Part shown: positions 29,003 to 43,022 of the stretch, piece by piece
Position numbering within the stretch: position 1 is the stretch's first letter
Layout of the letters: each line of letters begins with the position of its first letter
NCBI GenBank assembly: GCA_049512815.1
Contig: JBEKWS010000019.1
Coordinates: forward strand, 20,835-84,834
Length of the DNA: 64,000 nucleotides
Origin: Bacteroidales bacterium
GTDB taxonomy: Bacteria; Bacteroidota; Bacteroidia; Bacteroidales; VadinHA17
Direction of reading: 5' to 3'
Notes under the pieces: model-generated
Told to the model about the DNA's origin: nothing
Databases searched by the model: none
Seen by the model: the letters and a program-made list of their open reading frames with translations, nothing else
Made by a program: the position numbers and the translations under genes

Positions 29003-30562
29003 TCAACTTGATTTTATTTTTCTTACCACATCGATAACGGTTCCGTCAACCCATTTGATAGCAGCTACAATATCTTCTTCAAATCGAGGCTTTTGTGGTT
29101 TTCCGCAAATACTTTCAGCTTCATCCTTAAGTTCCTGAAGGGTTTTTAAAGGAAGTCCGCTTTCTTTGACATTGTAAATCAGATCCTGCCGCAACGGATT
29201 AATAGCAATTCCTCTTTCTGTTACAATCACATCAATTAGTTCTCCAGGGCCACAAAGCGTAGTGACTTCATCCACTATTACCGGGATCCTGTCGCGGAAT
29301 AAGGGTATCGGAAGAATAACATTACGGGCATGAAGGCAATTTTGCCAACCTCCAATACCATGAAGAAGGTAGCCATCTGAATGTGTAACAACGTTACCAT
29401 TGAAATTCAAGTCAACCTCGGTAGCCCCCAGTATCATAATATCCATCATACTCGTCAGGTTTCCCTTTGAATGATAGTTATAAGCATTGAAAACAGAGTA
29501 AGGAACATGGTTGGGATTATTCTCAACAGACTTTACTGAGTCCAGATCAAATACCTGTGCATCAAGAATAAAATCCATCTGACCCTCCTCAAGCATTTTT
29601 ACCATGTATTTTGTACTTCCTCCAAAACCAAATCTCGATTTCCATCCTTTATTTTTCAGGATCTGATGCACAAATACTGCAATTGCCAATGATGTTCCGC
29701 CAGCGCCTGCCTGCATTGTAACTCCATCTTTCAAAATGCCCGATTTTTCAAGAAATGAGGCAGTCAATTCCGCAATTAAAAGTCTGTCGGGGCTTTTGGT
29801 TATCTGCGTAGTGCCGGATACAATTTTTTCGGGTATTCCGATCTTGTCCACAACTACAACATAATCAACATAATTTCCTTCAATTTCCATTGGAAAGCAT
29901 GGAAGTTCAACAAGATTATCAGTCACAACAATTACTTTACTGGCATACATATAATCGGCCTTTGCATAACCCAGAACTCCACAGGCTGAGGAGCCTCCTG
30001 TCCCCTTTGCATTACCATAAGAATCTGATGTTGGTGCGGCAAGAACAGCAATGTCAATCATGACCTCACCATCCTGGATTGCCTGAACCCTGCCTCCATG
30101 CGATCTAAGGACAGCCGTTCCCTTCATTCTGCCTTCAGAAACATAACGGCCAAGGGGCCCATTCATACTACCCTCTATCCTGTTAATTGTGCCATCCTCA
30201 AGATATTTTATCACAGGGTAATTGCAAGGAAAAGAGGCAGAAGGGAACCATACCAGGTCTTTTACTCCAAGAGCGGAAGCGAGCTCAAATACTTTATTGC
30301 TGATCAAATCACCATCTCTCAGGTGATGATGTGTTGAAATAGTCATCCCATCACAAAGACCACATTTGCGAAGAGCTTCTTCAAGTGAACTGACAACCTT
30401 ATTACCATCCCCGGGATAATCAAAGCATGTTGGTATCGGAGGCGAATACTTTCGTCCTTCCGGTCTGTGTTTGCCAACTCCTTTAAAAGGGACCACAGGC
30501 TTACCATTGATCTCCAGAGGAACTGATCTGCCGGCAGCATTTATCACAGTTTTAATTGACAT
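29003..30562 (-). CDS. citF: citrate lyase alpha subunit (citrate CoA-transferase)
   Basis: 519 aa. N-terminal region …[14 protein letters not shown]… and overall length are typical of CitF. Confidence 0.88.
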
Positions 30563-30585
30563 ATTGTCTCTTTTAGTTCTTTATT

Positions 30586-31809
30586 CTAATCAGATGGAAT
30601 TTCATTAATCCAGTTGCCAGATAAAAGACCCAGACGCACAGCAAGATCAATGGTTTTTTGTGCGCGTACTACAACCGGGGGATCTATCATCTTCGATCCC
30701 AGAGCAACAACACCAAGCCCCTTAAGTTTTGCAGTTTCAAACGCCATAACAACCTTTTTTGATAATTCTATCTCATTTTCATCCGGCGCAAATCCTTGTC
30801 GAATTATCGCTATCTGCCTGGGATGAATACAACCCATTCCTTCAAAACCCAGCGATTTTGATATCAGAACATTTTGTTTTAGCGCCTCCATATCAGCTAC
30901 ATCTGAAAAAACAGAGTCAATAGGTTGAATACCTGCTGCCTTTGCAGCAACTACCAGCCGGGTTCTTGCATAAAAAGATTCGTTGCCTTCCACCGTCCTG
31001 GAAACACCCAGATCGGCTGTGTAATCTTCCAGACCTATTGCGATTGCAACAACATTTTTGGAAGCACGGGCAATCTCAAAAGAATACTCGATTCCAAGTG
31101 CACTCTCAATTATAGGCATCAGGTATACCTGATTCTTAAGATTGAATTTCTTTTTAATCCCTGAAATTTCTTTTTCGACCTGTTGAATATAATCAACACT
31201 TTCACATTTCGGAATAAGTACAAGATTAACATTATGCGGAATTATAAAATGAAGATCTTCCAGACCTCTTTCACCCTGGTTTATTCTGACCATCCTTTCT
31301 GCCCCGCAGAAATTAATCTGTCGTAATGCATTTCTGACAAGAATTCTGGCTTCATCTTTCTTTTCTGGAGCAACGGAGTCTTCAAGATCAAGAATAATTC
31401 CGTCAGCAGAATGAAGACCTGCATTGATCATCAGGCCGGGTGTATTCCCTGGTATATATAACCGTGAAAAACGAAACCTGTCGCGGGTTGTAGAATAATT
31501 ATTTTCTTTGAGAAACTCAGGAAGATAATCAAGATCGGTATTAAGCAATTGTTTAACTGCCGATTCCATACGTGCAGCAATTACAAAAGGCAGAGCTCCT
31601 GAGTCATTTATCTTTACAACAGCATTCTTAACTTCGTAAATATCAAGTACTTCCCCAATAAGCTTCATGATTGATTCACCATAAAGAGCTTTAACTTTAG
31701 AGGTAAGTTCAATATTTATTCCTCCCTCAGACTCTAATACTAAAGCAATTTCGCAATCGGACCTGACCTTTGGACCGGAATTGCCGGCAATAGCTATGGT
31801 TTTTTTCAT
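30586..31809 (-). CDS. fusion of citrate lyase acyl-carrier (gamma, CitD-like) and citryl-ACP lyase (beta, CitE-like) subunits
   Basis: 407 aa. Residues about 1-95 (IAIAGNSGPKVRSDCEI…VKINDSGALPFVIAARMESAV) look like CitD. Residues about 100-407 (SRLYIPGNTPGLMINAGLHSADGIILDLEDSVAPEKKDEAR…) look like CitE / the HpcH-HpaI aldolase family. Confidence 0.75.
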   Translation of the reverse strand: MKKTIAIAGNSGPKVRSDCEIALVLESEGGINIELTSKVKALYGESIMKLIGEVLDIYEVKNAVVKINDSGALPFVIAARMESAVKQLLNTDLDYLPEFLKENNYSTTRDRFRFSRLYIPGNTPGLMINAGLHSADGIILDLEDSVAPEKKDEARILVRNALRQINFCGAERMVRINQGERGLEDLHFIIPHNVNLVLIPKCESVDYIQQVEKEISGIKKKFNLKNQVYLMPIIESALGIEYSFEIARASKNVVAIAIGLEDYTADLGVSRTVEGNESFYARTRLVVAAKAAGIQPIDSVFSDVADMEALKQNVLISKSLGFEGMGCIHPRQIAIIRQGFAPDENEIELSKKVVMAFETAKLKGLGVVALGSKMIDPPVVVRAQKTIDLAVRLGLLSGNWINEIPSD

Positions 31810-31840
31810 TTTGCCATTTTATTGGTTATGCTGTACAAAC

Positions 31841-32263
31841 CTACTGATTTTTCAAACTACTTTTATTTTCGCAAAGTTCAATCAGAACACCGGAGGTTGC
31901 TTTTGGATGTAAAAAAGCAATATCAAGACCTTCAGCTCCTTTCCTCGGTTTAGAATCAATCAATCTGACACCCAGATTTGCTGCATGTACCAATTGCTCT
32001 TCAATTCTTTCAACAGAAAATGCAATATGATGAATTCCTTCACCTCGCTTTTCTATGAATTTACCGATAGGACCTTCAGGGTCAGTCGATTCGAGGAGTT
32101 CTATCTTAGTTTGTCCGACCATAAAGAATGCAGTCCTCAATTTTTGTTCAGGTATTTCTTCAATATTATAGCATGCAAGACCCATTACCTTTTCATAAAA
32201 ATCTATTGCATCCTCAAGCTTACTGACAGCTATCCCAATATGTTCAATATGTGAGGGTTTCAT
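31841..32263 (-). CDS. methylmalonyl-CoA epimerase / VOC (glyoxalase) family protein
   Basis: 140 aa. IEHIGIAVSKLEDAIDFY…, EGIHHIAF and IAFLHPK are typical of methylmalonyl-CoA epimerases. Confidence 0.75.
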   Translation of the reverse strand: MKPSHIEHIGIAVSKLEDAIDFYEKVMGLACYNIEEIPEQKLRTAFFMVGQTKIELLESTDPEGPIGKFIEKRGEGIHHIAFSVERIEEQLVHAANLGVRLIDSKPRKGAEGLDIAFLHPKATSGVLIELCENKSSLKNQ

Positions 32264-32560: not shown

Positions 32561-34120
32561 CTAAAATGGAAATTCTACAGGTGTTTTTATTTTAGACTCA
32601 ACGTTCTCAGGCTTTTTAGCCGCAACATGAACAGTGTTCCCATCAACGTAAATTGCTTTATACGGAACGGTAGGGCATGCAAATTCGCAATGGCCGCAAC
32701 CTATACAAATATCTTCTGTAACTTCAGGAATTACAAGGTTTCCTTCGTAAGGAATCATGTGGACAGCTTTTGTGGGACAACTTTCTGAGCATGCTCCACA
32801 AGCTGTTTTTTCAGTTTTTACAATGCAATTATCTTTAATAAATTTTGCTTTCCCGAGCTGGGTAAGCTTTTTAGCTTCAAGTACAAGAGGATGTAATGCA
32901 TTAGTAGGGCAAATCTCAGTGCATTTTGTGCAGTTATATGTACAAAAGCTCATGTGGTAATCCATCACCGGCTGCATAATACCTGCAATTCCGTATTGCT
33001 TAAATGCAGGTTGCAGGACACCATTCGGACAAACATTAATGCACAGTGAACAGGCAATACAATCTTTATTAAAAACTTCAATCCCAATTCCACCGGGAGG
33101 ACAAACCGGACATGTTTTGTTTTCTTTAACTGTTGAGTCTTTTTTAGGTTTTGGCGTTTTTTTGTCCTGCCCGTTTGAAACACGTGATAAACCTAAAAGG
33201 AGGAGGATTGACCCAACTAGGATCTTACGTTTACCCTCATCAGTCTCATGAACTTTCCTTTTAAACTTTACAATTCCGAATGAAATGGCTTTGTCCTGGC
33301 ATATATGTATACAATTGAAGCAACTGACACATCTGGTGATATCAACATCGTGCTTAAGAAAGTCAATACAGGAAGATTTACATCGCATGGAACATCTTCC
33401 ACACCTTGTACAAGAAGTCTCATCAAATTTTATCCTGAAAAGTGAAATCTTGGAGAGAAGACCAAGAAATGTTCCAACAGGACAGATCATGTTGCAATAT
33501 AGGCGACCCTTAGTTAATGAAAGCAATCCAATAAGAATAAAGAATACTACAGGAATAGAATATACAATCAAAGGAAATCCTTTCACAGGAATATTACTAA
33601 GTGTATAGATATCAAATCTACCAAGTATTCCTGCAAGAAAATTATTTATCACAATAACAACCGGCTTGGCAAAACAGGTCATAAACCTGCCAAAAATACT
33701 ATAAGGATCCAGAAGAGTTATCATATAAATACCCCACACTAAAGTAACAATAAGGGTTATTGCAAGGAGAGAGTATCTTAATATTGTAAAGGGTTTCTTA
33801 AACCCATATCTCCTGAACTTTCTTCTAATACGTCCTCCCATCCTGCTAAAAAGGTCTTGTCCGATACCAAGCGGACATAGAAATGAACAATAGGTTCGAC
33901 CAGATAGTAATGTCAGCAAAAGTACAACAAGAAAACCACCTGCTGCTATAGTTTTAAGATCATAAAACTTTAAAACAGATGGTATAAATTGTAAAAACAA
34001 TAAAGAATTTATATAGTTAGCCGGAATTAATGATTTGAAATCAACAAAAACCAGGAAAAAAAAGATAAAAACAAGTGTTGAAAAAACGATTCTGATTCTT
34101 CTAAGCACGGCTGACCTCAT
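32561..34120 (-). CDS. membrane-anchored polyferredoxin (NapH/MauN-like N-terminal domain plus multiple 4Fe-4S ferredoxin domains)
   Basis: 519 aa. About 6 TM helices carry CSFLCPLG and CNMICPVG motifs. Next come CTRCGRCSMRC, CVSCFNCIHIC, CIACSLCINVCP, CTKCTEICP, CGACSESCP and CIGCGHCEFACP cluster motifs. Confidence 0.8.
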   Translation of the reverse strand: MRSAVLRRIRIVFSTLVFIFFFLVFVDFKSLIPANYINSLLFLQFIPSVLKFYDLKTIAAGGFLVVLLLTLLSGRTYCSFLCPLGIGQDLFSRMGGRIRRKFRRYGFKKPFTILRYSLLAITLIVTLVWGIYMITLLDPYSIFGRFMTCFAKPVVIVINNFLAGILGRFDIYTLSNIPVKGFPLIVYSIPVVFFILIGLLSLTKGRLYCNMICPVGTFLGLLSKISLFRIKFDETSCTRCGRCSMRCKSSCIDFLKHDVDITRCVSCFNCIHICQDKAISFGIVKFKRKVHETDEGKRKILVGSILLLLGLSRVSNGQDKKTPKPKKDSTVKENKTCPVCPPGGIGIEVFNKDCIACSLCINVCPNGVLQPAFKQYGIAGIMQPVMDYHMSFCTYNCTKCTEICPTNALHPLVLEAKKLTQLGKAKFIKDNCIVKTEKTACGACSESCPTKAVHMIPYEGNLVIPEVTEDICIGCGHCEFACPTVPYKAIYVDGNTVHVAAKKPENVESKIKTPVEFPF

Positions 34121-34126
34121 CAGAAA

Positions 34127-35047
34127 TTACATTTTAATTCTTTTAATATTCAGAGAATCCAGGTTCATATTCCCCAATCCCATTTTATGCGCAATTGCTA
34201 TGTATTCTATCTTCTCGGTAGCTACTCCCAGCATTTTGGCAGCTGCAGCATCTCCGGCTACCCAGTCGGTAGTAAGTATCTGAGACTTCATAGAAACAAC
34301 ATCTTCTTTTGATACTGCCTGAGGACCATGTTTTACAATTACATTATAACAATCTATAACATTAAGTGCCGGTTTCTTCTCATACAGGGCATAATCTGCA
34401 ATACACTGGTTCAGATTATTCGAATGCCAGTAACCTCTGTCCCAGACAAGACCCATGTTGTTTTTAAGACAACAGGTCATTCTTGTCGAATTATGATCTT
34501 TAAGAACAGGTACATTTATAAATACATCTGTGTCAAGCAAAACCTGATGTACCTTGGCTTTCTGAAGCTTTATTCCTCCCGGAATTTCAATTTGCTGGTA
34601 ATAGCTTTCCGAGTTACCAGGAACAACTTTTGCACCTGCATCTTTTGCAGCTTTCTCAATTCCCGAGTTTTTATAACAATTTACCCAGTTATCACATGTG
34701 TGATCAAATATATAAACCTCTTTGGCACCTGCTTTGAAACAATGTTCTATAATCCTTTTAACCAGCAGCGGATTGGTATCTGCTGCAAGATCAGGAATCA
34801 CATCCCAACCAATATTAGGCTTAATCAGTACTTTTTGTCCTTTCTCAACAAATGCCCCCATTCCTCCCAATTCCTGTATTCCAAGGTCGAACATTGCATC
34901 AGGATTGCCACCCATTATGGCTACTATATCATATTTTGGCGAGAGAGGTGTCGATGACCAGAGTTTACCAAATCCGCCCATTCTTAACGCTGCACCGGTG
35001 GCGATACTCCCACCAATTGATGTTTTAAGAAAATCCCTTCTTTTCAT
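34127..35047 (-). CDS. Tat-signal DUF362 domain protein
   Basis: Twin-arginine leader MKRRDFLKTSIGGSIATGAAL. The body (…KVLIKPNIGW…VPVLKDHNSTRMTCCLKNNMG…) matches my recollection of DUF362 (PF04015). It lies 6 nt upstream of the polyferredoxin gene. The start could also be 35071. Confidence 0.65.
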   Translation of the reverse strand: MKRRDFLKTSIGGSIATGAALRMGGFGKLWSSTPLSPKYDIVAIMGGNPDAMFDLGIQELGGMGAFVEKGQKVLIKPNIGWDVIPDLAADTNPLLVKRIIEHCFKAGAKEVYIFDHTCDNWVNCYKNSGIEKAAKDAGAKVVPGNSESYYQQIEIPGGIKLQKAKVHQVLLDTDVFINVPVLKDHNSTRMTCCLKNNMGLVWDRGYWHSNNLNQCIADYALYEKKPALNVIDCYNVIVKHGPQAVSKEDVVSMKSQILTTDWVAGDAAAAKMLGVATEKIEYIAIAHKMGLGNMNLDSLNIKRIKM

Positions 35048-35231
35048 AATCTTAATAAACTGCTTCAACAATATACTTTTTGGATAAGTTCCGAAAAATA
35101 CAATTTTTTTTTATTATTCCGTAAACAATGTAAGTAGTATATTAGTAACGCAAAAATGCAAATACGTATTTTAAAGAAATGGATTAACATTCTTACGTTT
35201 TATTTGTTCCTAATTATATTACCCTAAGAAT

Positions 35232-36410
35232 ATGAAAATTATCGGTTATGATTGTTTTTCAGGTATCAGCGGAGATATGAATCTCGGTGCAATGATCGAC
35301 CTGGGTGTTGATAAAAAATATCTTATTGATGAATTAAATAAACTTAATCTCCAGGGTTGGGAGCTTATTGTTCAGAAAGACCAGAGACATGGTATCCACG
35401 GAACAAAAGTTACAGTTAAACAGACCAGTAATGAGCATACTCACCGGCACCTTTCAGATATTGAAAAGATCATAAATGACTCAACCCTTGACAGTAAGAC
35501 TAAGGAGCTGAGCAGGAAAATATTTATGAAGATTGCTCAGGCTGAAGCAACTGTACATGGAATCTCAATTGAACAAATACATTTTCACGAAATCGGAGCA
35601 ATTGATTCTATTATTGATATTGTCGGCGCTGCAATATGTTATAATGTCTTGAATGTTGATGGAGTTCACGTGTCAACTGTGGAGCTCGGAGGTGGTTTTG
35701 TTAAGTGTGATCATGGAAAGCTTCCTGTTCCGGCACCTGCAACTGTTGAAATCATTAAAGGAATTCCTATAAAAAAAGACGGCGTCGACTTTGAAGCCAC
35801 AACTCCTACGGGAGCTGCAATATTAGCAACACTGGGAACCGACTTCAACCCTGATTTGGCTATGAAAATTGAAAAAACAGCATATGGAGTAGGTCAGAAA
35901 GAACATCACGATGTTCCCAACCTTCTGAGAGTATTTCTTGGTGAAAAGATGGCGAATTCAGGATCTGGACATGATGCGCTTCATCTTGAATGTAACATTG
36001 ATGATATGAATCCTGAATTTTTTGAATATATCTCCGACAGACTCTTTAAATTGGGCGTATCAGATGTTTTCTTTTCAAATATTATGATGAAAAAGGGCCG
36101 ACCAGGTATTTTACTTAATGTTATATGCGAAACTGAACTATCGGATAATGTCAAAAATATCATTTTTACTGAATCAACATCATTGGGAATCAGGACTTAT
36201 CCTTTCAGAAAGGATACTCTGGTCAGAAAATTCGAAACTATTCAGACTATTTACGGCAATGTAACTGTTAAACATTCTTTTTATAATGGGAATGAGGTAT
36301 CATGTAAGCCTGAATATGAAGAATGTAAGAATATAGCCATTGAAAAAGGGATTCCTGTCAAAGAGGTGTACAGTAATATAATGGGGTTGTTAGTAAAAAG
36401 TAAAAAGTAA
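35232..36410 (+). CDS. larC: nickel-pincer cofactor biosynthesis protein LarC (nickel insertase, DUF111), single uninterrupted ORF
   Basis: 392 aa. Contains the DCFSGISGDMNLGAMIDLGV N-terminus and HFHEIGAIDSIIDIVG motif of the LarC/DUF111 family. Confidence 0.9.
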   Translation: MKIIGYDCFSGISGDMNLGAMIDLGVDKKYLIDELNKLNLQGWELIVQKDQRHGIHGTKVTVKQTSNEHTHRHLSDIEKIINDSTLDSKTKELSRKIFMKIAQAEATVHGISIEQIHFHEIGAIDSIIDIVGAAICYNVLNVDGVHVSTVELGGGFVKCDHGKLPVPAPATVEIIKGIPIKKDGVDFEATTPTGAAILATLGTDFNPDLAMKIEKTAYGVGQKEHHDVPNLLRVFLGEKMANSGSGHDALHLECNIDDMNPEFFEYISDRLFKLGVSDVFFSNIMMKKGRPGILLNVICETELSDNVKNIIFTESTSLGIRTYPFRKDTLVRKFETIQTIYGNVTVKHSFYNGNEVSCKPEYEECKNIAIEKGIPVKEVYSNIMGLLVKSKK

Positions 36411-36430
36411 AAAGTAAAAATAAGAAGGAA

Positions 36431-37249
36431 ATGAGAGAGGATAGGTTATTAAAACTCAATTTGATCCTGAAAGATATGGGTTCAATTGTAGTTGCATATT
36501 CAGGAGGAGTTGACAGTACTTTTCTTTTGCACAGAGCTAATACAGTCAGAAAATCAGGTTTAATTGCAATTACAATAAGAACACCATATATACCGTCCAG
36601 CGAAATAGCTGAAGCCACTGATTTTACAAAGACTTTTGGCATCAAACATAAAATATTGGATATTCCTTTTCCGGATATGATGAGAAGTAACCCGATTGAG
36701 AGATGTTATCTATGCAAGAAAACGCTTTTCACAGAGTTATTGACTTTTGCGAAGGAAAACAATTATCAATTTGTTATTGACGGAACAAACGCTGACGATA
36801 CCAGTGATTTCAGACCCGGTCTGGAAGCATTGAAAGAATTGGGTATCAGGAGTCCTCTTCTTGAGGCTGGTCTCACAAAAAAGAATATAAAAGAATTATC
36901 AAGAGATGAAGGTTTGGACATTTGGGATAAACCTGCCATGTCCTGCTTGCTAACAAGAGTCCCATACGATACTGAGATTAGTGAAGGAGTGCTCAGATTG
37001 GTTGAGGAAGCTGAAAATATGTTATTTGAAAAGGGTTATCCCGGAACAAGAGTTCGAATACATGGAGATTTAGCCAGAATTGAATGTATGCCGGGATATA
37101 TCGAAAAAATCATCCATAACCCTGACAAAGAACATATTATATCCGACCTGAAGAAAATTGGATTCAGATATGTATCTTTGGACCTTGAAGGTTACAAACA
37201 GGAAGTTCAAATCCTGAAAGGAAAGAAATATGAATGCAAAAGAAGTTGA
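36431..37249 (+). CDS. larE: ATP-dependent sulfur transferase LarE (PP-loop ATP pyrophosphatase)
   Basis: 272 aa. PP-loop AYSGGVDS, and cysteines in RCYLCKK and AMSCLLTR. Confidence 0.9.
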   Translation: MREDRLLKLNLILKDMGSIVVAYSGGVDSTFLLHRANTVRKSGLIAITIRTPYIPSSEIAEATDFTKTFGIKHKILDIPFPDMMRSNPIERCYLCKKTLFTELLTFAKENNYQFVIDGTNADDTSDFRPGLEALKELGIRSPLLEAGLTKKNIKELSRDEGLDIWDKPAMSCLLTRVPYDTEISEGVLRLVEEAENMLFEKGYPGTRVRIHGDLARIECMPGYIEKIIHNPDKEHIISDLKKIGFRYVSLDLEGYKQEVQILKGKKYECKRS

Positions 37250-37979
37250 AAAACTGCTTAAGAATATTAAAAATGGACAGACCAGTATAGAAGAGGCTAT
37301 GGAGGTTCTTAAAAACTTTCCATACACTGATCTCGCTTTTGCAAGATTAGATCATCATCGCGAAATGCGTACAGGTTATCCTGAAATTATTTACTGCGAA
37401 GGTAAATCGGTCGAGCAGGTTAAAGAGATATTCAGGGTGATGTCAGAGAAAGAAAATAATGTTATTGGCACGAGGGCAAATAATGAAATGTACGAAGCTG
37501 TAAGGAACATTTTAACCGATGCTATTTATTACCCTGTAGCAAGGATCATTTCTTTGCAAAATAAAAAACCTACAGTCTCTAAAAACAGAATTGCTATAAT
37601 AACAGCCGGTACCTCTGATATGCCAGTCGCAGAAGAAGCTGCAGTCACAGCCGAACTCCTTGGAAATGATGTATTGAGAATATATGATGCGGGGGTGGCA
37701 GGGATCCACCGCCTTGTTGACAAGCTACTGGAAATCAGAACCTGCCGGGTAATAATTGTCATTGCAGGTATGGAAGGTGCCCTGGCCAGCGTTGTCGGCG
37801 GACTTGTTGACAAGCCGGTAATTGCTGTTCCGACAAGCGTTGGGTACGGAGCCAATTTCGGGGGGATATCAGCACTTCTGGCAATGCTAACCAGTTGTTC
37901 TACAGGTATTACTGTTGTGAATATTGATAATGGGTTCGGGGCCGGTTTCGCTGCCAGCATGATAAACAAAATGGAGTGA
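37230..37979 (+). CDS. larB: nickel-pincer cofactor biosynthesis protein LarB (NaAD carboxylase/hydrolase, PurE-like)
   Basis: 249 aa. Contains TGYPEIIYCEGKS and the PurE-like IITAGTSDMPVAEEA…AGMEGALASVVGG. Overlaps larE by 20 nt. Confidence 0.9.
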   Translation: MNAKEVEKLLKNIKNGQTSIEEAMEVLKNFPYTDLAFARLDHHREMRTGYPEIIYCEGKSVEQVKEIFRVMSEKENNVIGTRANNEMYEAVRNILTDAIYYPVARIISLQNKKPTVSKNRIAIITAGTSDMPVAEEAAVTAELLGNDVLRIYDAGVAGIHRLVDKLLEIRTCRVIIVIAGMEGALASVVGGLVDKPVIAVPTSVGYGANFGGISALLAMLTSCSTGITVVNIDNGFGAGFAASMINKME

Positions 37980-38596
37980 TTCTTTTTGCAATGGCAGGAA
38001 AAAGATTAATTTCCACAGCATACTTACCACCAATTGAGTACTTCTCTTTATTTTCACAAGCAGATGAAGTATTTATTGAAAGAGAGGAGAACTACCAGAA
38101 ACAGTCATACCGGAACAGATGTTACATTCTCTCCGCACATGGTCCACAAATTCTGTCAGTACCAGTATATCTTGGCAGTCTGCATAAAACGCCCGTTAAA
38201 GACATCAGGATAGATTACTCCAAACGCTGGCAACAAGTGCATTTAAGGGCTATGACTGCATCTTATAACTCATCTCCCTATTTTGAATTCTATTTTGAAA
38301 ACATTGAAAAGATAATCTTAAAAAATTTTAGTTTTCTTCTTGACCTGAATATGGAGCTTACCGAATCAGTTCTTGAAATGTTAAAATTGAAAATTAAAAT
38401 CTCATACACTGCCACTTTTCAACCTGTCGGAGAAACGGAAAATGATTTCAGATACAAAATAACCCCAAAAGAAGAATCTCAATATACAGTGAAAAAATAC
38501 TTCCACGTATTTGATAATAATAATAAATTAGTTCAGGGTCTGAGTATTCTTGACCTTATTTTTAATATGGGACCGGAGTCAGTCAATTATCTTTAA
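37976..38596 (+). CDS. WbqC-like family protein
   Basis: STAYLPPIEYFSLF…ENYQKQSYRNRCYIL…ILSVPV matches the WbqC-like family pattern. The start is either GTG 37976 (overlapping the larB stop) or ATG 37991. Confidence 0.6.
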   Translation: MILFAMAGKRLISTAYLPPIEYFSLFSQADEVFIEREENYQKQSYRNRCYILSAHGPQILSVPVYLGSLHKTPVKDIRIDYSKRWQQVHLRAMTASYNSSPYFEFYFENIEKIILKNFSFLLDLNMELTESVLEMLKLKIKISYTATFQPVGETENDFRYKITPKEESQYTVKKYFHVFDNNNKLVQGLSILDLIFNMGPESVNYL

Positions 38597-38739: not shown

Positions 38740-40233
38740 TTAAATACCAAACTTATATCCAAAAGTAACTGCAAAAGTGTTTCTTGTAGTTTTAATTGTT
38801 GCAGGTTCCAGGTAACCCGGGTCAGAATACATATAATACAACCTACTGCTGTACAGTGCTGTGAAAGCCAAATCCAGGTAAAGATTCTGGTGTCTCATAC
38901 CAACACCAAATGAGAGAGAATTATAATCAAGGTTCTTGTTATCTTCACTTGGTTTAAAAGCTTTCCCGTAATAACTATAGCCACCTCTAAGGTAAATGTT
39001 ACTTAAACGTAATTCGGCACCAAGTCGAATGTTTGAAGCCGTCTTGTACATTTCCCTTATAATACTGTTTTCATCGGAAAAACTCTGACCGTCAATCGCT
39101 TTGCTAAATTGTGACATACTATAATCTACGAACTCATAATCTGCACTAATTATTGCACGCTTTTTTATCTGGACTGCAAAACCGGCATTAGCTCTGAACG
39201 GGGTAGTTAAAGTATACTTGTAACTCAAAGGGTTATTTGTATACTCATATTGGTCAAGATTATTAAGTTGGGTATCAAAATGTGAAGAAATATTGTCAAA
39301 GTAATTCTCAGTAATTCTATATACTGTCGGAGATTGTAAAGCAAGGCCTATCCTTAAGAAATCGACAGGCTTAATTATTGTTCCGATTTTCAGAGAATAG
39401 CCTGTCCCGGTAGCTTCAAGATGGTCGGTATATGTAAAACTCTTGAAATCATAAATAACATTGTTAACGTCAGACTCAAGGTGTTCTAAATGCCCGGTAT
39501 ATTTTAGCATGCTGATTGCCAGAGTAGTTCCGAAATAAAACTTATTGGAAAAATTAGCTCCGATTGAGAATGCATGTTCGCCGGTATAGCCGACATTTGT
39601 AATTACTCTTTTTATTTCCTGACCATACGTCGAAAAAGAGTTAGCACCGTAACGTGAAAATGTTGTTCCATATAAAGTATTTGATGTTGGAAGTGTATCA
39701 ATTAAATATGTTTGATATGCTGCCCATGCATCATCTGGAATATCCGTAGTACTCTTTCCATTTGCCCGGGAAACCCAATAATCAGCCATTGAGCTGTTAT
39801 TACTGATCCCGCTTATTGTAATATTCTCAGTAAAGTTGTTTGATCTGTTATATGAATAGGCGATATTTAAATTTACCAGGCCTTTCTCCTTATCGGTCGA
39901 AAAAATGGTGGATACAATTCCTATTTGACTCAAATTAAATACAGAACTGATGTCTTTAGATGCTGAATTATTCCAAAGAGAGGATGTACTGTTATAAACC
40001 AGTTGTGGGGTCAGACTGAATTCAGAAGATCTGAATACGCCTGTACCGGCAGGATTAAGGCTGATGGCAGATAAATCTCCCCCGAGAGCTGTGAAAGCAC
40101 CTCCCATTGACATAAACCTGGCAGTACCTCCATAAAATATCTGGGAATATCTCAATGCATCATCTATGTTCTGTGCAAAAACCTCTGTGAACACTGATAA
40201 TATCGCTAATATTACTAAACCTATCCTTTTCAT
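38740..40233 (-). CDS. FadL/OMPP1/TodX-like outer-membrane beta-barrel protein
   Basis: 497 aa. Signal peptide ending FAQ, N-terminal …ARFMSMGGAFTALGGDLSAISLNPAG… (FadL-family hallmark), and C-terminal beta-signal FGYKFGI. Confidence 0.6.
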   Translation of the reverse strand: MKRIGLVILAILSVFTEVFAQNIDDALRYSQIFYGGTARFMSMGGAFTALGGDLSAISLNPAGTGVFRSSEFSLTPQLVYNSTSSLWNNSASKDISSVFNLSQIGIVSTIFSTDKEKGLVNLNIAYSYNRSNNFTENITISGISNNSSMADYWVSRANGKSTTDIPDDAWAAYQTYLIDTLPTSNTLYGTTFSRYGANSFSTYGQEIKRVITNVGYTGEHAFSIGANFSNKFYFGTTLAISMLKYTGHLEHLESDVNNVIYDFKSFTYTDHLEATGTGYSLKIGTIIKPVDFLRIGLALQSPTVYRITENYFDNISSHFDTQLNNLDQYEYTNNPLSYKYTLTTPFRANAGFAVQIKKRAIISADYEFVDYSMSQFSKAIDGQSFSDENSIIREMYKTASNIRLGAELRLSNIYLRGGYSYYGKAFKPSEDNKNLDYNSLSFGVGMRHQNLYLDLAFTALYSSRLYYMYSDPGYLEPATIKTTRNTFAVTFGYKFGI

Positions 40234-40315
40234 AAAATTTGCATTTTTTTGTAAGACTAACCCTGCACTCCTTTATTTAGAATGAACGATTTTAAAAATA
40301 TTTTATTGTTTTCAA

Positions 40316-41704
40316 CTACCTCCTGCCTGAAGATGAACGACCTGATGAAGACCCTGATGAAGATCCTGATGAAGATCCTGATGAAGATCCTGAGGAAGAG
40401 GAACCTGATGATCCACTGCTAAACGATGATGAAGATCTGCTGCTTCCCGAAGATGAGCCCGATGAAAAACTTGATCCTCTTTCCACGCCGCTTCTGGATG
40501 GAACAGAATAGCTTTGAGAGTTTCTGTACGAATTAGATCTGATTTGTCCTGAAGGAACAGAATATCCTGATGGTGATCCATATCTCCTCTGAACATTTCC
40601 TGAAGAATTGCTTCTTACATTGTTATAAGGGTTCTGATAGTAACCTTGATTTGAAGGGGTTCGCACTGAACCAGAGTTATTGTACATCCTGCTGTTATTA
40701 TATGACGGTCTTGTGCTCATCCGTGGATTGCTGTAACTCGGTGTATATTTCCTGTTTACACTATTATATTCAGGTTTTACATTTGCCTGAGTCTTCTTGA
40801 TGGAGGTCGTCGGACGAATGTTTTCTGCTTGGGCTTGGTTCTGATCAAGTCTTCTGTTTGCCTGATTAACTGACTGCTGAGAATTTACTCCCGATGAAAC
40901 AGTCTTCCTCTGATCAACAGCAACTGTTTGAGATCCTGAAGAGATTCGTCTGTTAACTCCGGAATTTCCTCCTGAAAGATAAGAATCTCTTCTTGCAGAG
41001 CCGGTGGCAGACACATTATTGTTCGATCTTGAAGAAAGGGTACTTGGTCTCTCTCTCCTGCCATAAGTCACACTATTTTTCCTTTCATTAAGAGAGTAAC
41101 TTCCCGAATAACCATAGAAAGGAGAATAAAATGAGCCAAAGCCACCATAATAACCACCATAACCACCATAATAACCAGGATAATAGCCTCCATATCCATA
41201 ATAGTCACCATATAATCCTCCGTAGCCAAAATAAGGACTCCCGAATAATGAGTTGCCAAAGCCATAGGAATAAGGGAACCCTCCATAACCAAAACTGTAA
41301 CCAAATGACGGATAACCATAGTCAAAATAGAACGGGTCTCTCCAATAAGGATCAAAATAGTTCCCGTAGAATTGTCTTAACCTGCCTGCATATGAGTAGT
41401 TATCAAAATAATCATATCCCCCGTTATTATAGTAGTTGTTATTATGAATCTGGTTGCCAATATCAACTGCATTTGAATACTGGTCTGCAACAATAGTATC
41501 GGCTGCATAAATATTGTCATAATAGTCTTTATTCTTTAGAGTACGTTCAGGAATCTGTTCATTTACAGACGGTTTTGTCGTAACCACCGGTTTATCTGAA
41601 GGTAAATAATAAAGATCATCATACTCTGCACCTGTATAAAGGCTTGAAGTACAGGAGCCAAGGGTCAGAAGTGCAAGGACTAATATTTGAGATATTGTTT
41701 TCAT
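40316..41704 (-). CDS. secreted low-complexity lipoprotein: Tyr/Gly-rich segment, Asn/Ser/Arg-rich segment, poly-(Ser-Gly) tail
   Basis: 462 aa. Lipoprotein-type signal LLTLGSC, then …GYGGYYPGYYGGYGGYYGGFGSFYSPFYGYSGSY…, ending …GSSSGSSSGSSSGSSSGRSSSGRR. Paralogous to 41845-42924. Confidence 0.6.
   Translation of the reverse strand: MKTISQILVLALLTLGSCTSSLYTGAEYDDLYYLPSDKPVVTTKPSVNEQIPERTLKNKDYYDNIYAADTIVADQYSNAVDIGNQIHNNNYYNNGGYDYFDNYSYAGRLRQFYGNYFDPYWRDPFYFDYGYPSFGYSFGYGGFPYSYGFGNSLFGSPYFGYGGLYGDYYGYGGYYPGYYGGYGGYYGGFGSFYSPFYGYSGSYSLNERKNSVTYGRRERPSTLSSRSNNNVSATGSARRDSYLSGGNSGVNRRISSGSQTVAVDQRKTVSSGVNSQQSVNQANRRLDQNQAQAENIRPTTSIKKTQANVKPEYNSVNRKYTPSYSNPRMSTRPSYNNSRMYNNSGSVRTPSNQGYYQNPYNNVRSNSSGNVQRRYGSPSGYSVPSGQIRSNSYRNSQSYSVPSRSGVERGSSFSSGSSSGSSRSSSSFSSGSSGSSSSGSSSGSSSGSSSGSSSGRSSSGRR
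40341..40412. repeat. 12-nt tandem repeat (CCTGATGAAGAT x about 6) inside the coding tail
   Basis: Units at 40341, 40353, 40365 and 40377 are near-identical, and those at 40389 and 40401 are degenerate. On the minus strand they encode the (SSGS)n tail. Confidence 0.85.
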
Positions 41705-41757
41705 TTTAATTCCCCCTATTGTTTTCTAAATGACACGCAAATATTGTACCAAAGAAA

Positions 41758-41765
41758 CAAAATTA
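41758..41765 (-). promoter_or_regulatory. candidate -7 promoter box TAATTTTG on the minus strand
   Basis: The plus strand reads CAAAATTA, 54 nt upstream of the ATG at 41704. Confidence 0.3.
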
Positions 41766-41844
41766 TTGAACTAAGTGTTACGATTACAGAAATAAATTAT
41801 TATTCGAATAAAATCAGGGATATGACATTGCATGTCCTCTTATT

Positions 41845-42924
41845 TTATCTTCGTCCGGAGGATTTTCCATGAGAAGAGACGGATCTGGAACCAGATGACC
41901 TGGATGAACCATGCGAAGAACTGCTTCTAATTCCGGAACCGGAGGTCATTGATCTGGACGATGAATGTACCTGTGGAGAACTCATTGATCTGTATGAATG
42001 TGAGGATATGCCTCCATTCGAATGTACAGTCCTGTTGTTGTTTTCTCCCTGTGAAATATAATTGTTGCTGCGATTATTATTTACGCCTGTATTGATATTT
42101 CTTGAATTCTGAACCCTAACATTATTACTTGCGTAAAACCTATTGTTACTAATGTTACCTTTATTTCCGAAAGTGCGGGCGTTATTAGGTTGCTCCCTTT
42201 TAACTGCCGGAGTACTTATCCGTCTGGTTTCCCCTGCATGAAGACCATTATTATTTCTGACAACCGGTCTGCTCTTGCTGACTTCATTCCTGGAATAGTT
42301 ACCGGAGGAATTGTCCCTTCTATATACATTATTATTATAAGTTGATCCTGAATTGCTGCCAGGGTTCCGCCTTGAACCGGACTCAGCATAGGAATATCTG
42401 TTTAGATTATAACCGTGATGATTATTTCCCGAATAGTGATTGTATCTGTAGTCATTGTATCCGTAGTAATGATTATGGCCATTCCAGCCCCAATAATTGT
42501 TTCGCCATCTGTTTCCGAAGTTAAAATTGAATATAAAAGGCGTGAACCAGCTATTATAATAAAAAGGATCATAACCCCAGCTATAATTTACCCCGAAATA
42601 AGGATCGTATCCATAATAATCACCATAACCAAAATTAAATCCTAAACCGTTGCCACCATATATGTTTAATCCCCAATACCATGGCTGATAATCATACCAG
42701 TAAGGATCTGTAAAGAGCGGAGAATAATAATCGAATGCGGCATAAGATCTGTGAAACCTGTTTATCCTTGATGCAAAATAATAGTCATAATTATCGTAAT
42801 AGTTATTTACCACTAATTTGGCGTCATCATTCCTGTAGTCTCTCGAATCAGCACTCTGCCCTTTTACTGTTGAAAAGGTAAGCAGAAGAACTGATAAAAC
42901 TCCGATGTAATATTTTGCTTTCAT
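41845..42924 (-). CDS. secreted low-complexity protein, paralog of 40316-41704 (aromatic/Gly-rich then Asn/Ser/Arg-rich)
   Basis: Signal peptide MKAKYYIGVLSVLLLTFSTVKGQ, with the start placed at ATG 42924 rather than 43014. Contains …ASRINRFHRSYAAFDYYSPLFTDPYWYDYQPWYWG…GYGDYYGYDPYFG… and ends …SSHGKSSGRR. Confidence 0.6.
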   Translation of the reverse strand: MKAKYYIGVLSVLLLTFSTVKGQSADSRDYRNDDAKLVVNNYYDNYDYYFASRINRFHRSYAAFDYYSPLFTDPYWYDYQPWYWGLNIYGGNGLGFNFGYGDYYGYDPYFGVNYSWGYDPFYYNSWFTPFIFNFNFGNRWRNNYWGWNGHNHYYGYNDYRYNHYSGNNHHGYNLNRYSYAESGSRRNPGSNSGSTYNNNVYRRDNSSGNYSRNEVSKSRPVVRNNNGLHAGETRRISTPAVKREQPNNARTFGNKGNISNNRFYASNNVRVQNSRNINTGVNNNRSNNYISQGENNNRTVHSNGGISSHSYRSMSSPQVHSSSRSMTSGSGIRSSSSHGSSRSSGSRSVSSHGKSSGRR

Positions 42925-43022
42925 GATGAACCTACCTTTCTTTTTTTGATAATAACTGAAGTTTTTATTTATTTTTACGCAATCTATTTTTCTAGACTTA
43001 TAAACAAATACCATACCAAAAA

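Follow-up and report, generated by a model that had tools for sequence, protein, structure and literature searches.

A nickel-pincer nucleotide biosynthesis operon next to a Tat-exported, LarA-like DUF362 protein and a polyferredoxin: a candidate membrane-wired cofactor client in Bacteroidales

Organization of the locus

We analyzed a stretch of 64,000 nucleotides from a Bacteroidales bacterium of the VadinHA17 lineage (assembly GCA_049512815.1, contig JBEKWS010000019.1, positions 20,835 to 84,834), here called the window, in which two gene groups diverge from a short intergenic region. One comprises larC, larE and larB, the genes for the biosynthesis of the cofactor nickel-pincer nucleotide (NPN); the other encodes a protein with the domain of unknown function DUF362 (PF04015) and a membrane-embedded polyferredoxin (PFD). 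In our reading, to which we assign a probability of roughly 60%, the locus joins a NPN biosynthesis set to the enzyme that it serves, with the DUF362 protein acting as a NPN-dependent redox enzyme that is exported via the twin-arginine translocation (Tat) pathway and that the polyferredoxin connects to the membrane.

On the plus strand, larC (35232-36410) encodes a full-length fusion of LarC1 and LarC2, the CTP-dependent nickel-inserting cyclometallase. It is followed after a gap of 20 nt by larE (36431-37249), the gene for a sulfur insertase that is of the [4Fe-4S] (CxxC...C) type by its motif, and larE in turn overlaps by 20 nt with larB (37230-37979), which codes for the nicotinic acid adenine dinucleotide (NaAD) carboxylase/hydrolase. 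On the minus strand, a gap of 6 nt separates the gene for the DUF362 protein (34127-35047), the predicted catalytic and NPN-binding subunit, from that for the polyferredoxin (32561-34120), a polytopic protein of 519 aa in which a NapH-like membrane module is fused to a NapG/NapF-like four-cluster domain. Translation of the DUF362 gene could alternatively start at a TTG codon at 35071 (open reading frame [ORF] 34127-35071). The ATG codon at 35047 is the better choice, since it yields the N-terminus MKRRDFLK and a protein of 306 aa, a size that the 120 closest homologs share with few exceptions. The divergent spacer between the DUF362 gene and larC measures 184 nt from the ATG codon and 160 nt from the TTG codon. 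All five ORFs were confirmed at these coordinates, and our measurements of spacing agree with an initial annotation of this DNA, which had described complete and tightly packed larC, larE and larB genes, a divergent spacing of 160-185 nt and a 6-nt gap between the DUF362 and polyferredoxin genes.

Family membership was assigned by Pfam scans and by the curated equivalog cutoffs of NCBIfam. LarC1 (TIGR00299) scored 215.9 bits against a cutoff of 90 and LarC2 (NF052512) 140.6 against 50; LarE (TIGR00268) reached 285.1 bits (cutoff 150) and LarB (NF033503) 303.1 bits (cutoff 175). Judged by these scores, larC, larE and larB are intact and constitute a complete predicted set for NPN biosynthesis. 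The LarE protein carries a SGGVDS P-loop at residue 24 together with C92, C95 and C172, and the positions of these three Cys residues are equal to those of the [4Fe-4S] cluster ligands of T. maritima LarE (PMC9283937). Two types of sulfur donor are distinguished among LarE proteins, a single sacrificial Cys as in L. plantarum and a CxxC...C [4Fe-4S] site as in T. maritima, and the protein from the window matches the latter; its motifs suggest that it is probably a catalytic, cluster-dependent enzyme and not a sacrificial one. The NCBIfam model to which it belongs bears the name "sacrificial sulfur transferase", although the set of Cys residues fits the [4Fe-4S] type.

Fold and kinship of the DUF362 protein

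The DUF362 protein matches PF04015 with 150.8 bits (cutoff 24; E 6.7e-44) over profile positions 1-200 of 200. The initial annotation had suggested comparing an AlphaFold model of this protein with LarA structures by HHpred/Foldseek. With an AlphaFold2 (AF2) model of high predicted quality as the query (pLDDT 94.9, pTM 0.88), all 18 of the 18 PDB matches at E<=1e-3 were LarA-family NPN enzymes (5HUQ, 6C1W, 8EZF/H, 2YJG, 9EIA/D, 6D6Z, 7S91, 9Q3J, 9Q3K). These matches have E-values of 1.4e-5 to 9.7e-4, a probability of 1.00, 207-288 aligned columns, query-normalized template modeling (TM) scores of 0.37-0.51, and sequence identities of 8-14%. The next matches, at E>=7e-3, were generic Rossmann-type methyltransferases and dehydrogenases.

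This structural kinship has a counterpart in the classification of protein families. PF04015 (DUF362) and PF09861 (LarA_N/DUF2088) are both placed in Pfam clan CL0471, and on these clan grounds a LarA tree published in JBC in 2024 was rooted with DUF362 sequences as the outgroup (PMC11770544). The DUF362 protein is almost certainly a homolog within the LarA superfamily. If it does use NPN, it would consequently represent a divergent LarA-like NPN enzyme and not a new NPN-binding fold. The ORF itself gave no match to PF09861, and a LarA hidden Markov model (HMM) scored it at no better than E 8.1; longer DUF362 representatives contained no fusions to Lar proteins.

The DUF362 protein thus shares with the LarA family, which comprises NPN-dependent 2-hydroxyacid racemases and epimerases, its fold, its Pfam clan, residues aligned with Lys184 and His174 (see below) and a larB/larC/larE neighborhood. 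It differs from LarA in its size, the mature protein comprising about 270 aa versus about 420 aa for LarA, and in its low sequence identity. It is furthermore predicted to be Tat-exported, whereas the paper on the LarA superfamily mentions neither a signal peptide nor export, and it has a polyferredoxin as its obligatory partner, which would imply net electron transfer where LarA relies on an internal hydride shuttle.

Candidate cofactor-site residues

The active site of LarA contains the Lys that tethers the cofactor through a thioamide, a His that completes the coordination of nickel, the catalytic His108 and His174, an Asp that contacts the ribose, and an Arg or Lys that contacts the phosphate (PMC12611868). 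We confirmed D72, R75, H108, H174, K184 and H200 on the sequence of L. plantarum LarA and found all six to be invariant in an alignment of ten LarA sequences (26-58% identity). An hhalign comparison of the DUF362 and LarA profiles, used only for the residue register within its high-confidence segment, pairs H185 of the DUF362 protein with H174 of LarA, and K195 with the tethering K184. The alignment runs from the N-terminal strand to this Lys, pairs the strand DVFINVPV of the DUF362 protein with DLLISEGF of LarA, and has a posterior confidence of 8-9 over DVFINVPVLKDHNSTRMTCCLK versus LarA DLLISEGFIESHFFAGFSGGRK. The initial annotation had proposed to look for a Lys/His-lined pocket comparable to the NPN site; the conserved K195 and H185 are candidates for residues of such a pocket.

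Based on the alignment and on conservation, we delineate a candidate NPN-site segment that spans H185, K195 and H208 (HNSTRMTCCLKNNMGLVWDRGYWH; 34424-34495, minus strand). A second element, the loop K76-P77-N78 that follows the first core beta-strand (34814-34822, minus strand), is aligned by hhalign with LarA residues 69-71. It occupies the same topological place as the ribose/phosphate loop S71-D72-x-T74-R75 of LarA, with a different residue pattern, and we infer that both loops may be functionally equivalent.

In an alignment of 92 diverse DUF362 homologs (31-90% identity), K76 is conserved in 89 sequences, P77 in 90, N78 in 87, H185 and K195 in 88 each, and H208 in 87. D232 is present in all 92 sequences, and D115, T91 and D266 are strongly conserved as well. 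The quartet N78, H185, K195 and H208 is retained as a whole in 87 of the 92 proteins, and jointly with K76 in 85. Those five sequences that lack K195 and/or H208 (P0140, P0143, P0158, P0191, P0193) have lost several members of the quartet together, a pattern that would be expected if these residues formed one functional site. Moreover, the quartet is invariant in the 81 DUF362 sequences from genome loci and the window and in six further loci, irrespective of whether lar genes are adjacent. Racemization by LarA requires a pair of catalytic His residues that face each other, His108 and His174, and only the latter has a counterpart (H185) in the DUF362 protein. A single acid/base His would fit a one-directional hydride transfer better than a racemase reaction. 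The family has no conserved set of Cys residues for an Fe-S cluster of its own; C118 occurs in 52 and C215 in 37 of the 92 sequences.

Predicted Tat export and the polyferredoxin

The N-terminus of the DUF362 protein is a predicted Tat signal peptide (beginning with MKRRDFLKTSIGGSIATGAAL; 34943-35047, minus strand), in which KRRDFLK fits the S/T-R-R-x-F-L-K consensus and precedes an h-region of moderate hydrophobicity. Among the 92 diverse homologs, R3 is found in 87, and position 4 is occupied by Arg in 77 and by Lys in 8. The Arg pair is present in 80 of the 81 sequences from genome loci and the window, and the consensus is also kept in six further DUF362 loci. The twin-arginine leader (RRDFLK) that the initial annotation had recognized is a conserved trait of the family. 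On the protein from the window, the TAT_signal model of Pfam stayed short of E 0.001.

The polyferredoxin contains two Fer4_5 domains and several Fer4 families according to Pfam, and its NCBIfam scores of 86 bits for NapH (cutoff 213), 52.8 for NapF (102.2) and 43.4 for NapG (178.85) all fall below the cutoffs. Its 24 Cys residues form six four-Cys [4Fe-4S] motifs and are accompanied by two CX3CP motifs (33872-33889 and 33479-33496, minus strand), with 99-100% conservation in 71 homologs. The count of six 4Fe-4S motifs in the initial annotation is thereby upheld, each of the 24 Cys being at least 99% conserved; its estimate of about six transmembrane (TM) helices needs to be replaced by four strongly hydrophobic helices and one weaker, Tat-type helix. 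The four strong segments are located at residues 4-34, 48-84, 111-139 and 179-205 (family-mean hydropathy >1.5). The fifth, TM5 (ILVGSILLLLGLS followed by Arg), remains below the threshold of 1.5 that the four Sec-type helices pass. Two of the [4Fe-4S] motifs (C237-C274; 33299-33412, minus strand; Cys 99-100% conserved) are predicted to be cytoplasmic by analogy with NapH (PMC5449189). From the alignment of homologs we delineate a putative internal Tat-type signal anchor (DEGKRKILVGSILLLLGLSRVSNGQ; 33167-33241, minus strand) made up of a dibasic motif, the weakly hydrophobic TM5 and a trailing Arg. Behind the anchor lie four [4Fe-4S] motifs (C354-C482; 32672-33061, minus strand) that are predicted to be periplasmic and whose 16 Cys residues are conserved in 100% of the 71 homologs. 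The pattern [RK][RK]x followed by two hydrophobic residues precedes TM5 in 71 of 71 homologs; it reads RR in 39 of them, and KR (K-R-K) in the window.

This architecture matches, to judge from its sequence features, that of the PFD family of dual Sec/Tat proteins. Members of this family have five TM domains, a twin-arginine motif ahead of TMD5 and four clusters outside the membrane; they have been described as NapH-NapG fusions, and their need for both the Sec and the Tat system was demonstrated experimentally (Tooke et al., 2017; PMC5449189). Compared by architecture with PFD Q1NSB0 from the deltaproteobacterium MLMS-1, the protein from the window agrees in its four helices at the N-terminus that bear CX3CP motifs, its predicted cytoplasmic clusters, a dibasic stretch immediately ahead of a weakly hydrophobic TM5 with a positive charge behind it, and four subsequent [4Fe-4S] motifs. 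It deviates from the PFD description in having KR in place of the twin-arginine motif, and two cytoplasmic four-Cys clusters plus two CX3CP motifs versus the three cytoplasmic clusters counted in that study (PMC5449189). A further difference concerns its partner: no partner or function is named in the PFD study (PMC5449189), whereas polyferredoxins of the type found in the window have a conserved one in the Tat-exported DUF362 protein. With good probability, the signal sequences direct both the DUF362 protein and the four-cluster domain of the polyferredoxin to the periplasmic face of the membrane via Tat.

Linkage of the lar genes to the DUF362-polyferredoxin pair

A scan of one genome per GTDB species yielded 80 DUF362 loci from Bacteroidales, Rikenellaceae, Ignavibacteriota, Melioribacter, Prolixibacteraceae, Desulfobacter, Competibacteraceae, Geopsychrobacteraceae, Opitutales and Chitinophagaceae. 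The DUF362-polyferredoxin pair is a conserved unit that is near-universal across these phyla: in 76 of the 80 loci, the polyferredoxin gene comes next after DUF362 and shares its strand, and of the four loci that deviate, three stop at a contig end. Very probably, the two proteins form one functional unit. The divergent arrangement of larCEB and the DUF362-polyferredoxin pair is present in all 31 assessable loci of the Bacteroidales/Rikenellaceae clade to which the window belongs. It recurs in three further genome loci (L060, L082, L084) and in the 20 lar-linked loci found by a scan of metagenomes, most of which stem from the window's own clade. DUF362 proteins from loci without lar genes share no more than about 62% identity with their relatives from lar-linked loci.

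Two additional gene orders were found outside this clade. In a metagenome-assembled genome (MAG) of the Competibacteraceae (L041), the genes for DUF362, the polyferredoxin, larC, larE and larB are lined up on one strand, with a gap of 6 nt between the polyferredoxin gene and larC, and polA is located directly downstream. The LarC protein encoded there belongs to a populous lineage native to the Competibacteraceae, in which identities of 68-80% prevail inside the family as opposed to 44% with the LarC protein from the window. A recent block transfer of the Competibacteraceae clusters can hence be discounted, because their LarC belongs to the family's own lineage. A survey of the gene contexts of nine LarC relatives placed DUF362 adjacent in six of them. 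Three of the nine contexts, all from Competibacteraceae, one of them on a 3.6-Mb contig (L178), the others being L180 and L181, show the same one-strand order as the MAG; in L180 and L181, mobile/defence-type genes (SLFN_AlbA_2, Uma2 and unannotated ORFs) intervene between the DUF362 and polyferredoxin genes, and the polyferredoxin gene is contiguous with larCEB. Two contexts from a separate lineage with 60-62% G+C (GC) content (L184, L185) have small ORFs between the DUF362-polyferredoxin pair and larCEB. A third order, larC-larE-larB-DUF362-PFD, is found in L182 (74% GC) and in L187. In Ca. Competibacter denitrificans (L179; CAWKRO010000001.1), just the polyferredoxin gene and larC lie between a HAD hydrolase gene and polA, in the place of the complete five-gene series of sister genomes; DUF362, larE and larB are jointly absent from this locus, which looks like a decaying or remodeled cluster. 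One further context (L183) stops at a contig edge, and another (L186) has a solitary larC gene.

The lar genes and the DUF362-polyferredoxin pair are thus neighbors in three gene orders and in lineages ranging from 37 to 74% GC. Because this adjacency has survived three rearrangements in distant lineages, it constitutes strong evidence of a functional coupling between both gene groups.

The collection of loci contains several variations on this theme. In seven clusters of the window's clade (L008, L009, L012, L014, L023, L033, L065), larC and larB adjoin DUF362 with no larE in between; larE must be located elsewhere in these genomes or be absent. The locus of a Ca. Contendobacter (L068) has a DUF362 gene without a polyferredoxin gene within 7.8 kb, probably through an insertion similar to that seen in L180 and L181. 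In a member of the Geopsychrobacteraceae (L079; OY761157.1), two DUF362 ORFs (312 and 310 aa), split by an ORF of 299 aa, precede a single polyferredoxin gene. A multi-pass membrane protein of 167-206 aa is encoded divergently upstream of DUF362 in 12 loci without lar genes, mostly from Ignavibacteriota and Melioribacter (L037, L042, L044, L046, L047, L054, L058, L066, L070, L071, L073, L074). Finally, on "plasmid 5" of Parabacteroides distasonis (L097; NZ_OY725750.1), an aldose 1-epimerase gene and tgt flank a DUF362-polyferredoxin pair with 47% identity (DUF362 protein WP_005857469.1); this sequence is full of housekeeping genes (tgt, LptF/G, a xylose operon, Trk) and may be a chromosomal fragment labeled as a plasmid. 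Pfam gave no match for a 175-aa representative of the membrane protein upstream of DUF362 or for the hypothetical neighbor in P. distasonis.

Search for LarA and other users of NPN

The initial annotation had stated that no LarA/DUF2088-type ORF exists within the 64 kb, and three approaches agree on this point. A tblastn search with L. plantarum LarA (plasmid NZ_CP055122.1) gave no match at E<10 in the window or in 85 related loci, and the LarA HMM, run with filters off against the 342 six-frame ORFs of the window, reached a best E of 0.4. Pfam scans of 29 window ORFs returned housekeeping genes and neither PF09861 nor an aldo-keto reductase (PF00248). The description of the lar genes as an operon without larA holds to the extent that PF09861 is missing from the window; it had overlooked that the divergently encoded DUF362 protein is itself a remote homolog of the LarA superfamily. 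LarA is therefore absent from the window in the narrow sense only.

It had also been assumed that LarA-family racemases and epimerases are the only characterized users of NPN, a view that is outdated by the description of NPN-using NphT aldo-keto reductases (PMC13524815) and by a NPAD-dependent ornithine cyclodeaminase, NPAD being a dinucleotide variant of the cofactor, that is cited in the same work. A blastp search with the aldo-keto reductase that neighbors larBCE in Clostridium butyricum gave a best E of 0.03 against all window ORFs. The C. butyricum genes (L087; plasmid NZ_CP039706.1) are arranged as larB-larC-larE, followed by an ECF-type cobalt/nickel transporter and the aldo/keto reductase, a NphT-type context (Nat Chem 2026).

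Both newly recognized clients were likewise found via larBCE clusters without larA and a neighboring candidate with a His/Lys pair. They differ from the DUF362 protein in having a TIM barrel and an ornithine cyclodeaminase (OCD) fold, which are unrelated to the DUF362 fold, and neither export nor coupling to an electron-transport chain is suggested for them (PMC13524815). The reactions of LarA and NphT are redox-neutral overall, the hydride being returned to an organic acceptor. Since the 2026 discovery pipeline deliberately targeted proteins without homology to LarA (PMC13524815), DUF362 proteins would lie outside its focus.

About 15% of genomes make the NPN cofactor without LarA (PMC11796402), so that clients of NPN are still to be found; many cyanobacteria belong to these larBCE-positive, larA-negative organisms (PMC11796402). 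The only NCBIfam match of the DUF362 protein from the window is a weak one to the "Npun_F2552 family" (54 bits versus a cutoff of 500). This name presumably derives from a Nostoc, that is cyanobacterial, locus tag. A DUF362-like family might be the NPN client of those cyanobacteria that possess larBCE and lack larA.

Proposed function and alternative explanations

In the model that we favor, LarB, the [4Fe-4S]-type LarE and LarC would build NPN in the cytoplasm, where the DUF362 protein would fold and take up the cofactor, probably tethered at Lys195, with His185 as the single acid/base residue and His208 as a candidate nickel ligand. The loaded enzyme would subsequently be exported in its folded state via Tat and dock, on the periplasmic side, onto the four-cluster NapG-like domain of the co-transcribed polyferredoxin, a domain that the internal Tat-type anchor would place outside after Sec has inserted the four NapH-like helices. 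Via a chain of six clusters, the NPN site would then be in contact with the menaquinone pool, with donors in the cytoplasm or with both, in whichever direction the electrons would flow. On balance, a small molecule in the periplasm would be oxidized or reduced by two electrons (as hydride), as opposed to the redox-neutral racemization catalyzed by LarA; by analogy with LarA, the default guess for the substrate would be either a 2-hydroxy/2-oxo acid or a C-H/C=O couple of the sugar type. Such an arrangement would resemble the NapGH quinol dehydrogenase, in which a membrane Fe-S protein and a periplasmic four-cluster ferredoxin stand between the quinone pool and a Tat-exported enzyme, and the polyferredoxin indeed has domain similarity to NapH, NapF and NapG. 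The differences to NapGH are that the parts are fused here into one polypeptide, that there are no nap genes nearby, that the scores lie far below the equivalog cutoffs, and that the terminal enzyme is LarA-like and not a molybdoenzyme as in nitrate reductase systems.

On the evidence of fold, residues and gene neighborhood, it appears reasonably probable that the DUF362 protein uses NPN. The view of the initial annotation, in which this protein is a candidate for an NPN enzyme that leaves the cytoplasm via Tat and is linked to the membrane, has gained from the LarA fold, the aligned Lys/His pair, the gene linkage, the Tat leader and the PFD-type anchor; its framing needs correction with regard to an operon without larA and to LarA as the only user of NPN, and the linkage is not family-wide. 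More tentatively, and with odds that we would place somewhat short of even, PF04015/DUF362 might be a large overlooked branch of NPN enzymes. Its Tat subfamily would then be the first extracytoplasmic, net-redox NPN enzyme, in which the pincer converts hydride into one-electron transfer via a NapGH-type wire to quinone, would be the partner of the Sec/Tat polyferredoxins, and would account for a part of the roughly 15% of genomes with larBCE only.

Several observations weigh against a NPN-dependent DUF362 enzyme. Searches of PDB sequences with phmmer and hmmsearch gave only noise and no LarA, and hhalign against the profile of ten LarA sequences was not significant (E 0.13); the homology to LarA is thus visible only via fold and clan. 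Five residues are shared by every LarA homolog, and among these the Lys is the sole one with a clean match in the alignment. The catalytic His108 is without a conserved counterpart, the corresponding DUF362 region reading D115-x-T/P-C/hydrophobic, with H116 in 39 of the 92 sequences. Asp72 and Arg75 have merely topological candidates in K76 and N78, and a low-confidence extension of the hhalign alignment sets H208 near M216/H217 of LarA and not near the nickel ligand H200. To our knowledge, the coupling of one-electron Fe-S carriers to a hydride cofactor is without precedent among NPN enzymes. Our literature search found no paper testing NPN binding by any DUF362 protein. With respect to gene neighborhoods, the frequency check that the initial annotation had proposed revealed a tight linkage in the window's clade and in three gene orders that does not extend to the entire family, given that lar genes occur within 10 kb in only 4 of 48 more distant genome loci (L041, L060, L082, L084) and in none of 19 distant metagenome loci with flanks of sufficient length. 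Parabacteroides distasonis has the DUF362-polyferredoxin pair without lar genes within 12 kb.

These points are the strength of an alternative in which the DUF362-polyferredoxin pair works as a redox module of the periplasm independently of NPN. The LarA-like scaffold would bind another ligand, a metal or nothing at all, the lar genes would serve an unlinked client such as a LarA homolog, a NphT-type aldo-keto reductase or another enzyme, and the adjacency would reflect shared regulation or history. Such a module would account for the absence of nearby lar genes from most distant loci and from P. distasonis, for the want of clear counterparts to the LarA-invariant H108, D72 and R75, and for the conservation of the two-gene unit regardless of lar. 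The tendency of lar genes to scatter, as documented by the solitary larC (L186) and by the seven clusters of the window's clade without larE, agrees with an unlinked client; for the same reason, however, the lack of adjacency elsewhere is weak counter-evidence to a NPN-dependent DUF362 protein. An adjacency that recurs in three gene orders and over 37-74% GC is hard to explain without functional coupling. In addition, the only fold relatives of DUF362 in the PDB are NPN enzymes, the conserved Lys in register with the NPN tether varies in concert with two His residues and an Asn, the protein has no conserved Cys set for an Fe-S cluster of its own, and Tat export implies some cofactor inserted in the cytoplasm. 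We therefore regard a NPN-free module as unlikely, though by no means negligible.

An improbable variant would have the DUF362 protein bind NPN, a precursor or a variant such as NPAD without being a catalyst; it would carry, store or escort the cofactor or take part in its handling or scavenging in the periplasm, with the polyferredoxin serving another role. It can draw on the same fold and linkage evidence as a NPN-dependent enzyme, on the retention of only one of the two catalytic His residues of LarA, and on the dinucleotide cofactor variant that is cited in PMC13524815. The strict pairing on the same strand, usually a few nt apart, with a six-cluster protein, the four-cluster domain of which is sent to the compartment of DUF362, points instead to redox catalysis, and the strong conservation of D115, D232, D266 and T91 looks like that of an active site and not just of a binding pocket. 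We also considered whether the two operons are neighbors merely through a single ancestral arrangement inherited by Bacteroidales, in line with the synteny of the entire neighborhood in the window's clade (WbqC, MCEE, citDE, citF, prolyl-tRNA synthetase), by reason of which conservation within this clade says little. This very improbable explanation was rejected, as it is contradicted by the three gene orders: the two additional ones are found in unrelated high-GC lineages with different flanks (polA, H+-PPase, pyruvate:ferredoxin oxidoreductase subunits), and a given 3-kb cluster is expected to fall into a 20-kb window by chance in well under 1% of cases.

Several elements of a NPN-dependent, membrane-wired DUF362 enzyme were known before: the clan relation of DUF362 and LarA, the PFD architecture, and the notion of new clients hidden in genomes that possess larBCE and lack larA (PMC11796402; PMC13524815). 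None of the papers retrieved by our literature search connects DUF362 with NPN, and the search also yielded no work on the lar genes of Bacteroidales or on an association of lar genes with a LarA-like DUF362 protein that is exported by Tat and has a Sec/Tat polyferredoxin as its obligate partner. If our reading is correct, the DUF362 protein would be the first NPN enzyme to act outside the cytoplasm and also the first with a coupling to an electron-transport chain, so that NPN chemistry would reach into respiratory-type electron transfer. At the same time, a function would be assigned to a Pfam domain that has had none so far, and the Sec/Tat polyferredoxin family would obtain a partner. The locus thus provides a specific, widespread and testable candidate for a NPN client with a different working logic, one that would be exported by Tat after loading and wired to a quinone-linked Fe-S chain. 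The corresponding experiments are feasible, as the cultured gut bacterium P. distasonis carries the DUF362-polyferredoxin pair and a working larBCE co-expression system exists for E. coli (PMC11796402).

Intergenic region and neighboring genes

The divergent intergenic region between the DUF362 gene and larC (35048-35231) has a length of 130-200 nt in most of 58 divergent loci. Its alignment across divergent loci contains two conserved blocks, GC.AATATAC.AT and T.GTATTTT.C, which may represent back-to-back promoter elements; neither a palindrome nor a common operator was seen in this alignment. A search of the region from 28 to 40 kb against Rfam found no riboswitch and no other Rfam family, and scans for sigma-70 promoters and terminators remained at background level with a model that is ill-suited to Bacteroidota.

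Downstream of larB, and overlapping its end by 4 nt, lies a gene for a WbqC-like protein (37976-38596, plus strand; PF08889, E 6.6e-38) that is probably co-transcribed with larB. In Bacteroidales-type loci, a WbqC-like gene is positioned 3' of larB (a cluster found in 31 loci), and it is absent from the lar-DUF362 clusters of the proteobacterial type. In three loci (L043, L050, L076), it stands directly beside DUF362 with no lar genes in between. It could be an accessory gene or a mere syntenic neighbor.

On the other side of the locus, 297 nt downstream of the polyferredoxin gene, a group on the minus strand (29003-32263) comprises a methylmalonyl-CoA epimerase gene, a CitD-CitE fusion and citF. 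The CitE part of the fusion scores 264 bits against a citrate-lyase equivalog cutoff of 443, and the CitD-CitE/citF set may form a lyase for a substrate other than citrate. The group is conserved only in the Bacteroidales clade, where relatives add a rubredoxin gene. Beyond the WbqC-like gene, the minus strand encodes a FadL/Toluene_X-like outer-membrane protein (38740-40233) and two secreted proteins of low sequence complexity (40316-41704 and 41845-43014) in which Tyr, Gly, Asn and Ser are abundant; this group (38740-43014) is syntenic in relatives (clusters c5 and c6).

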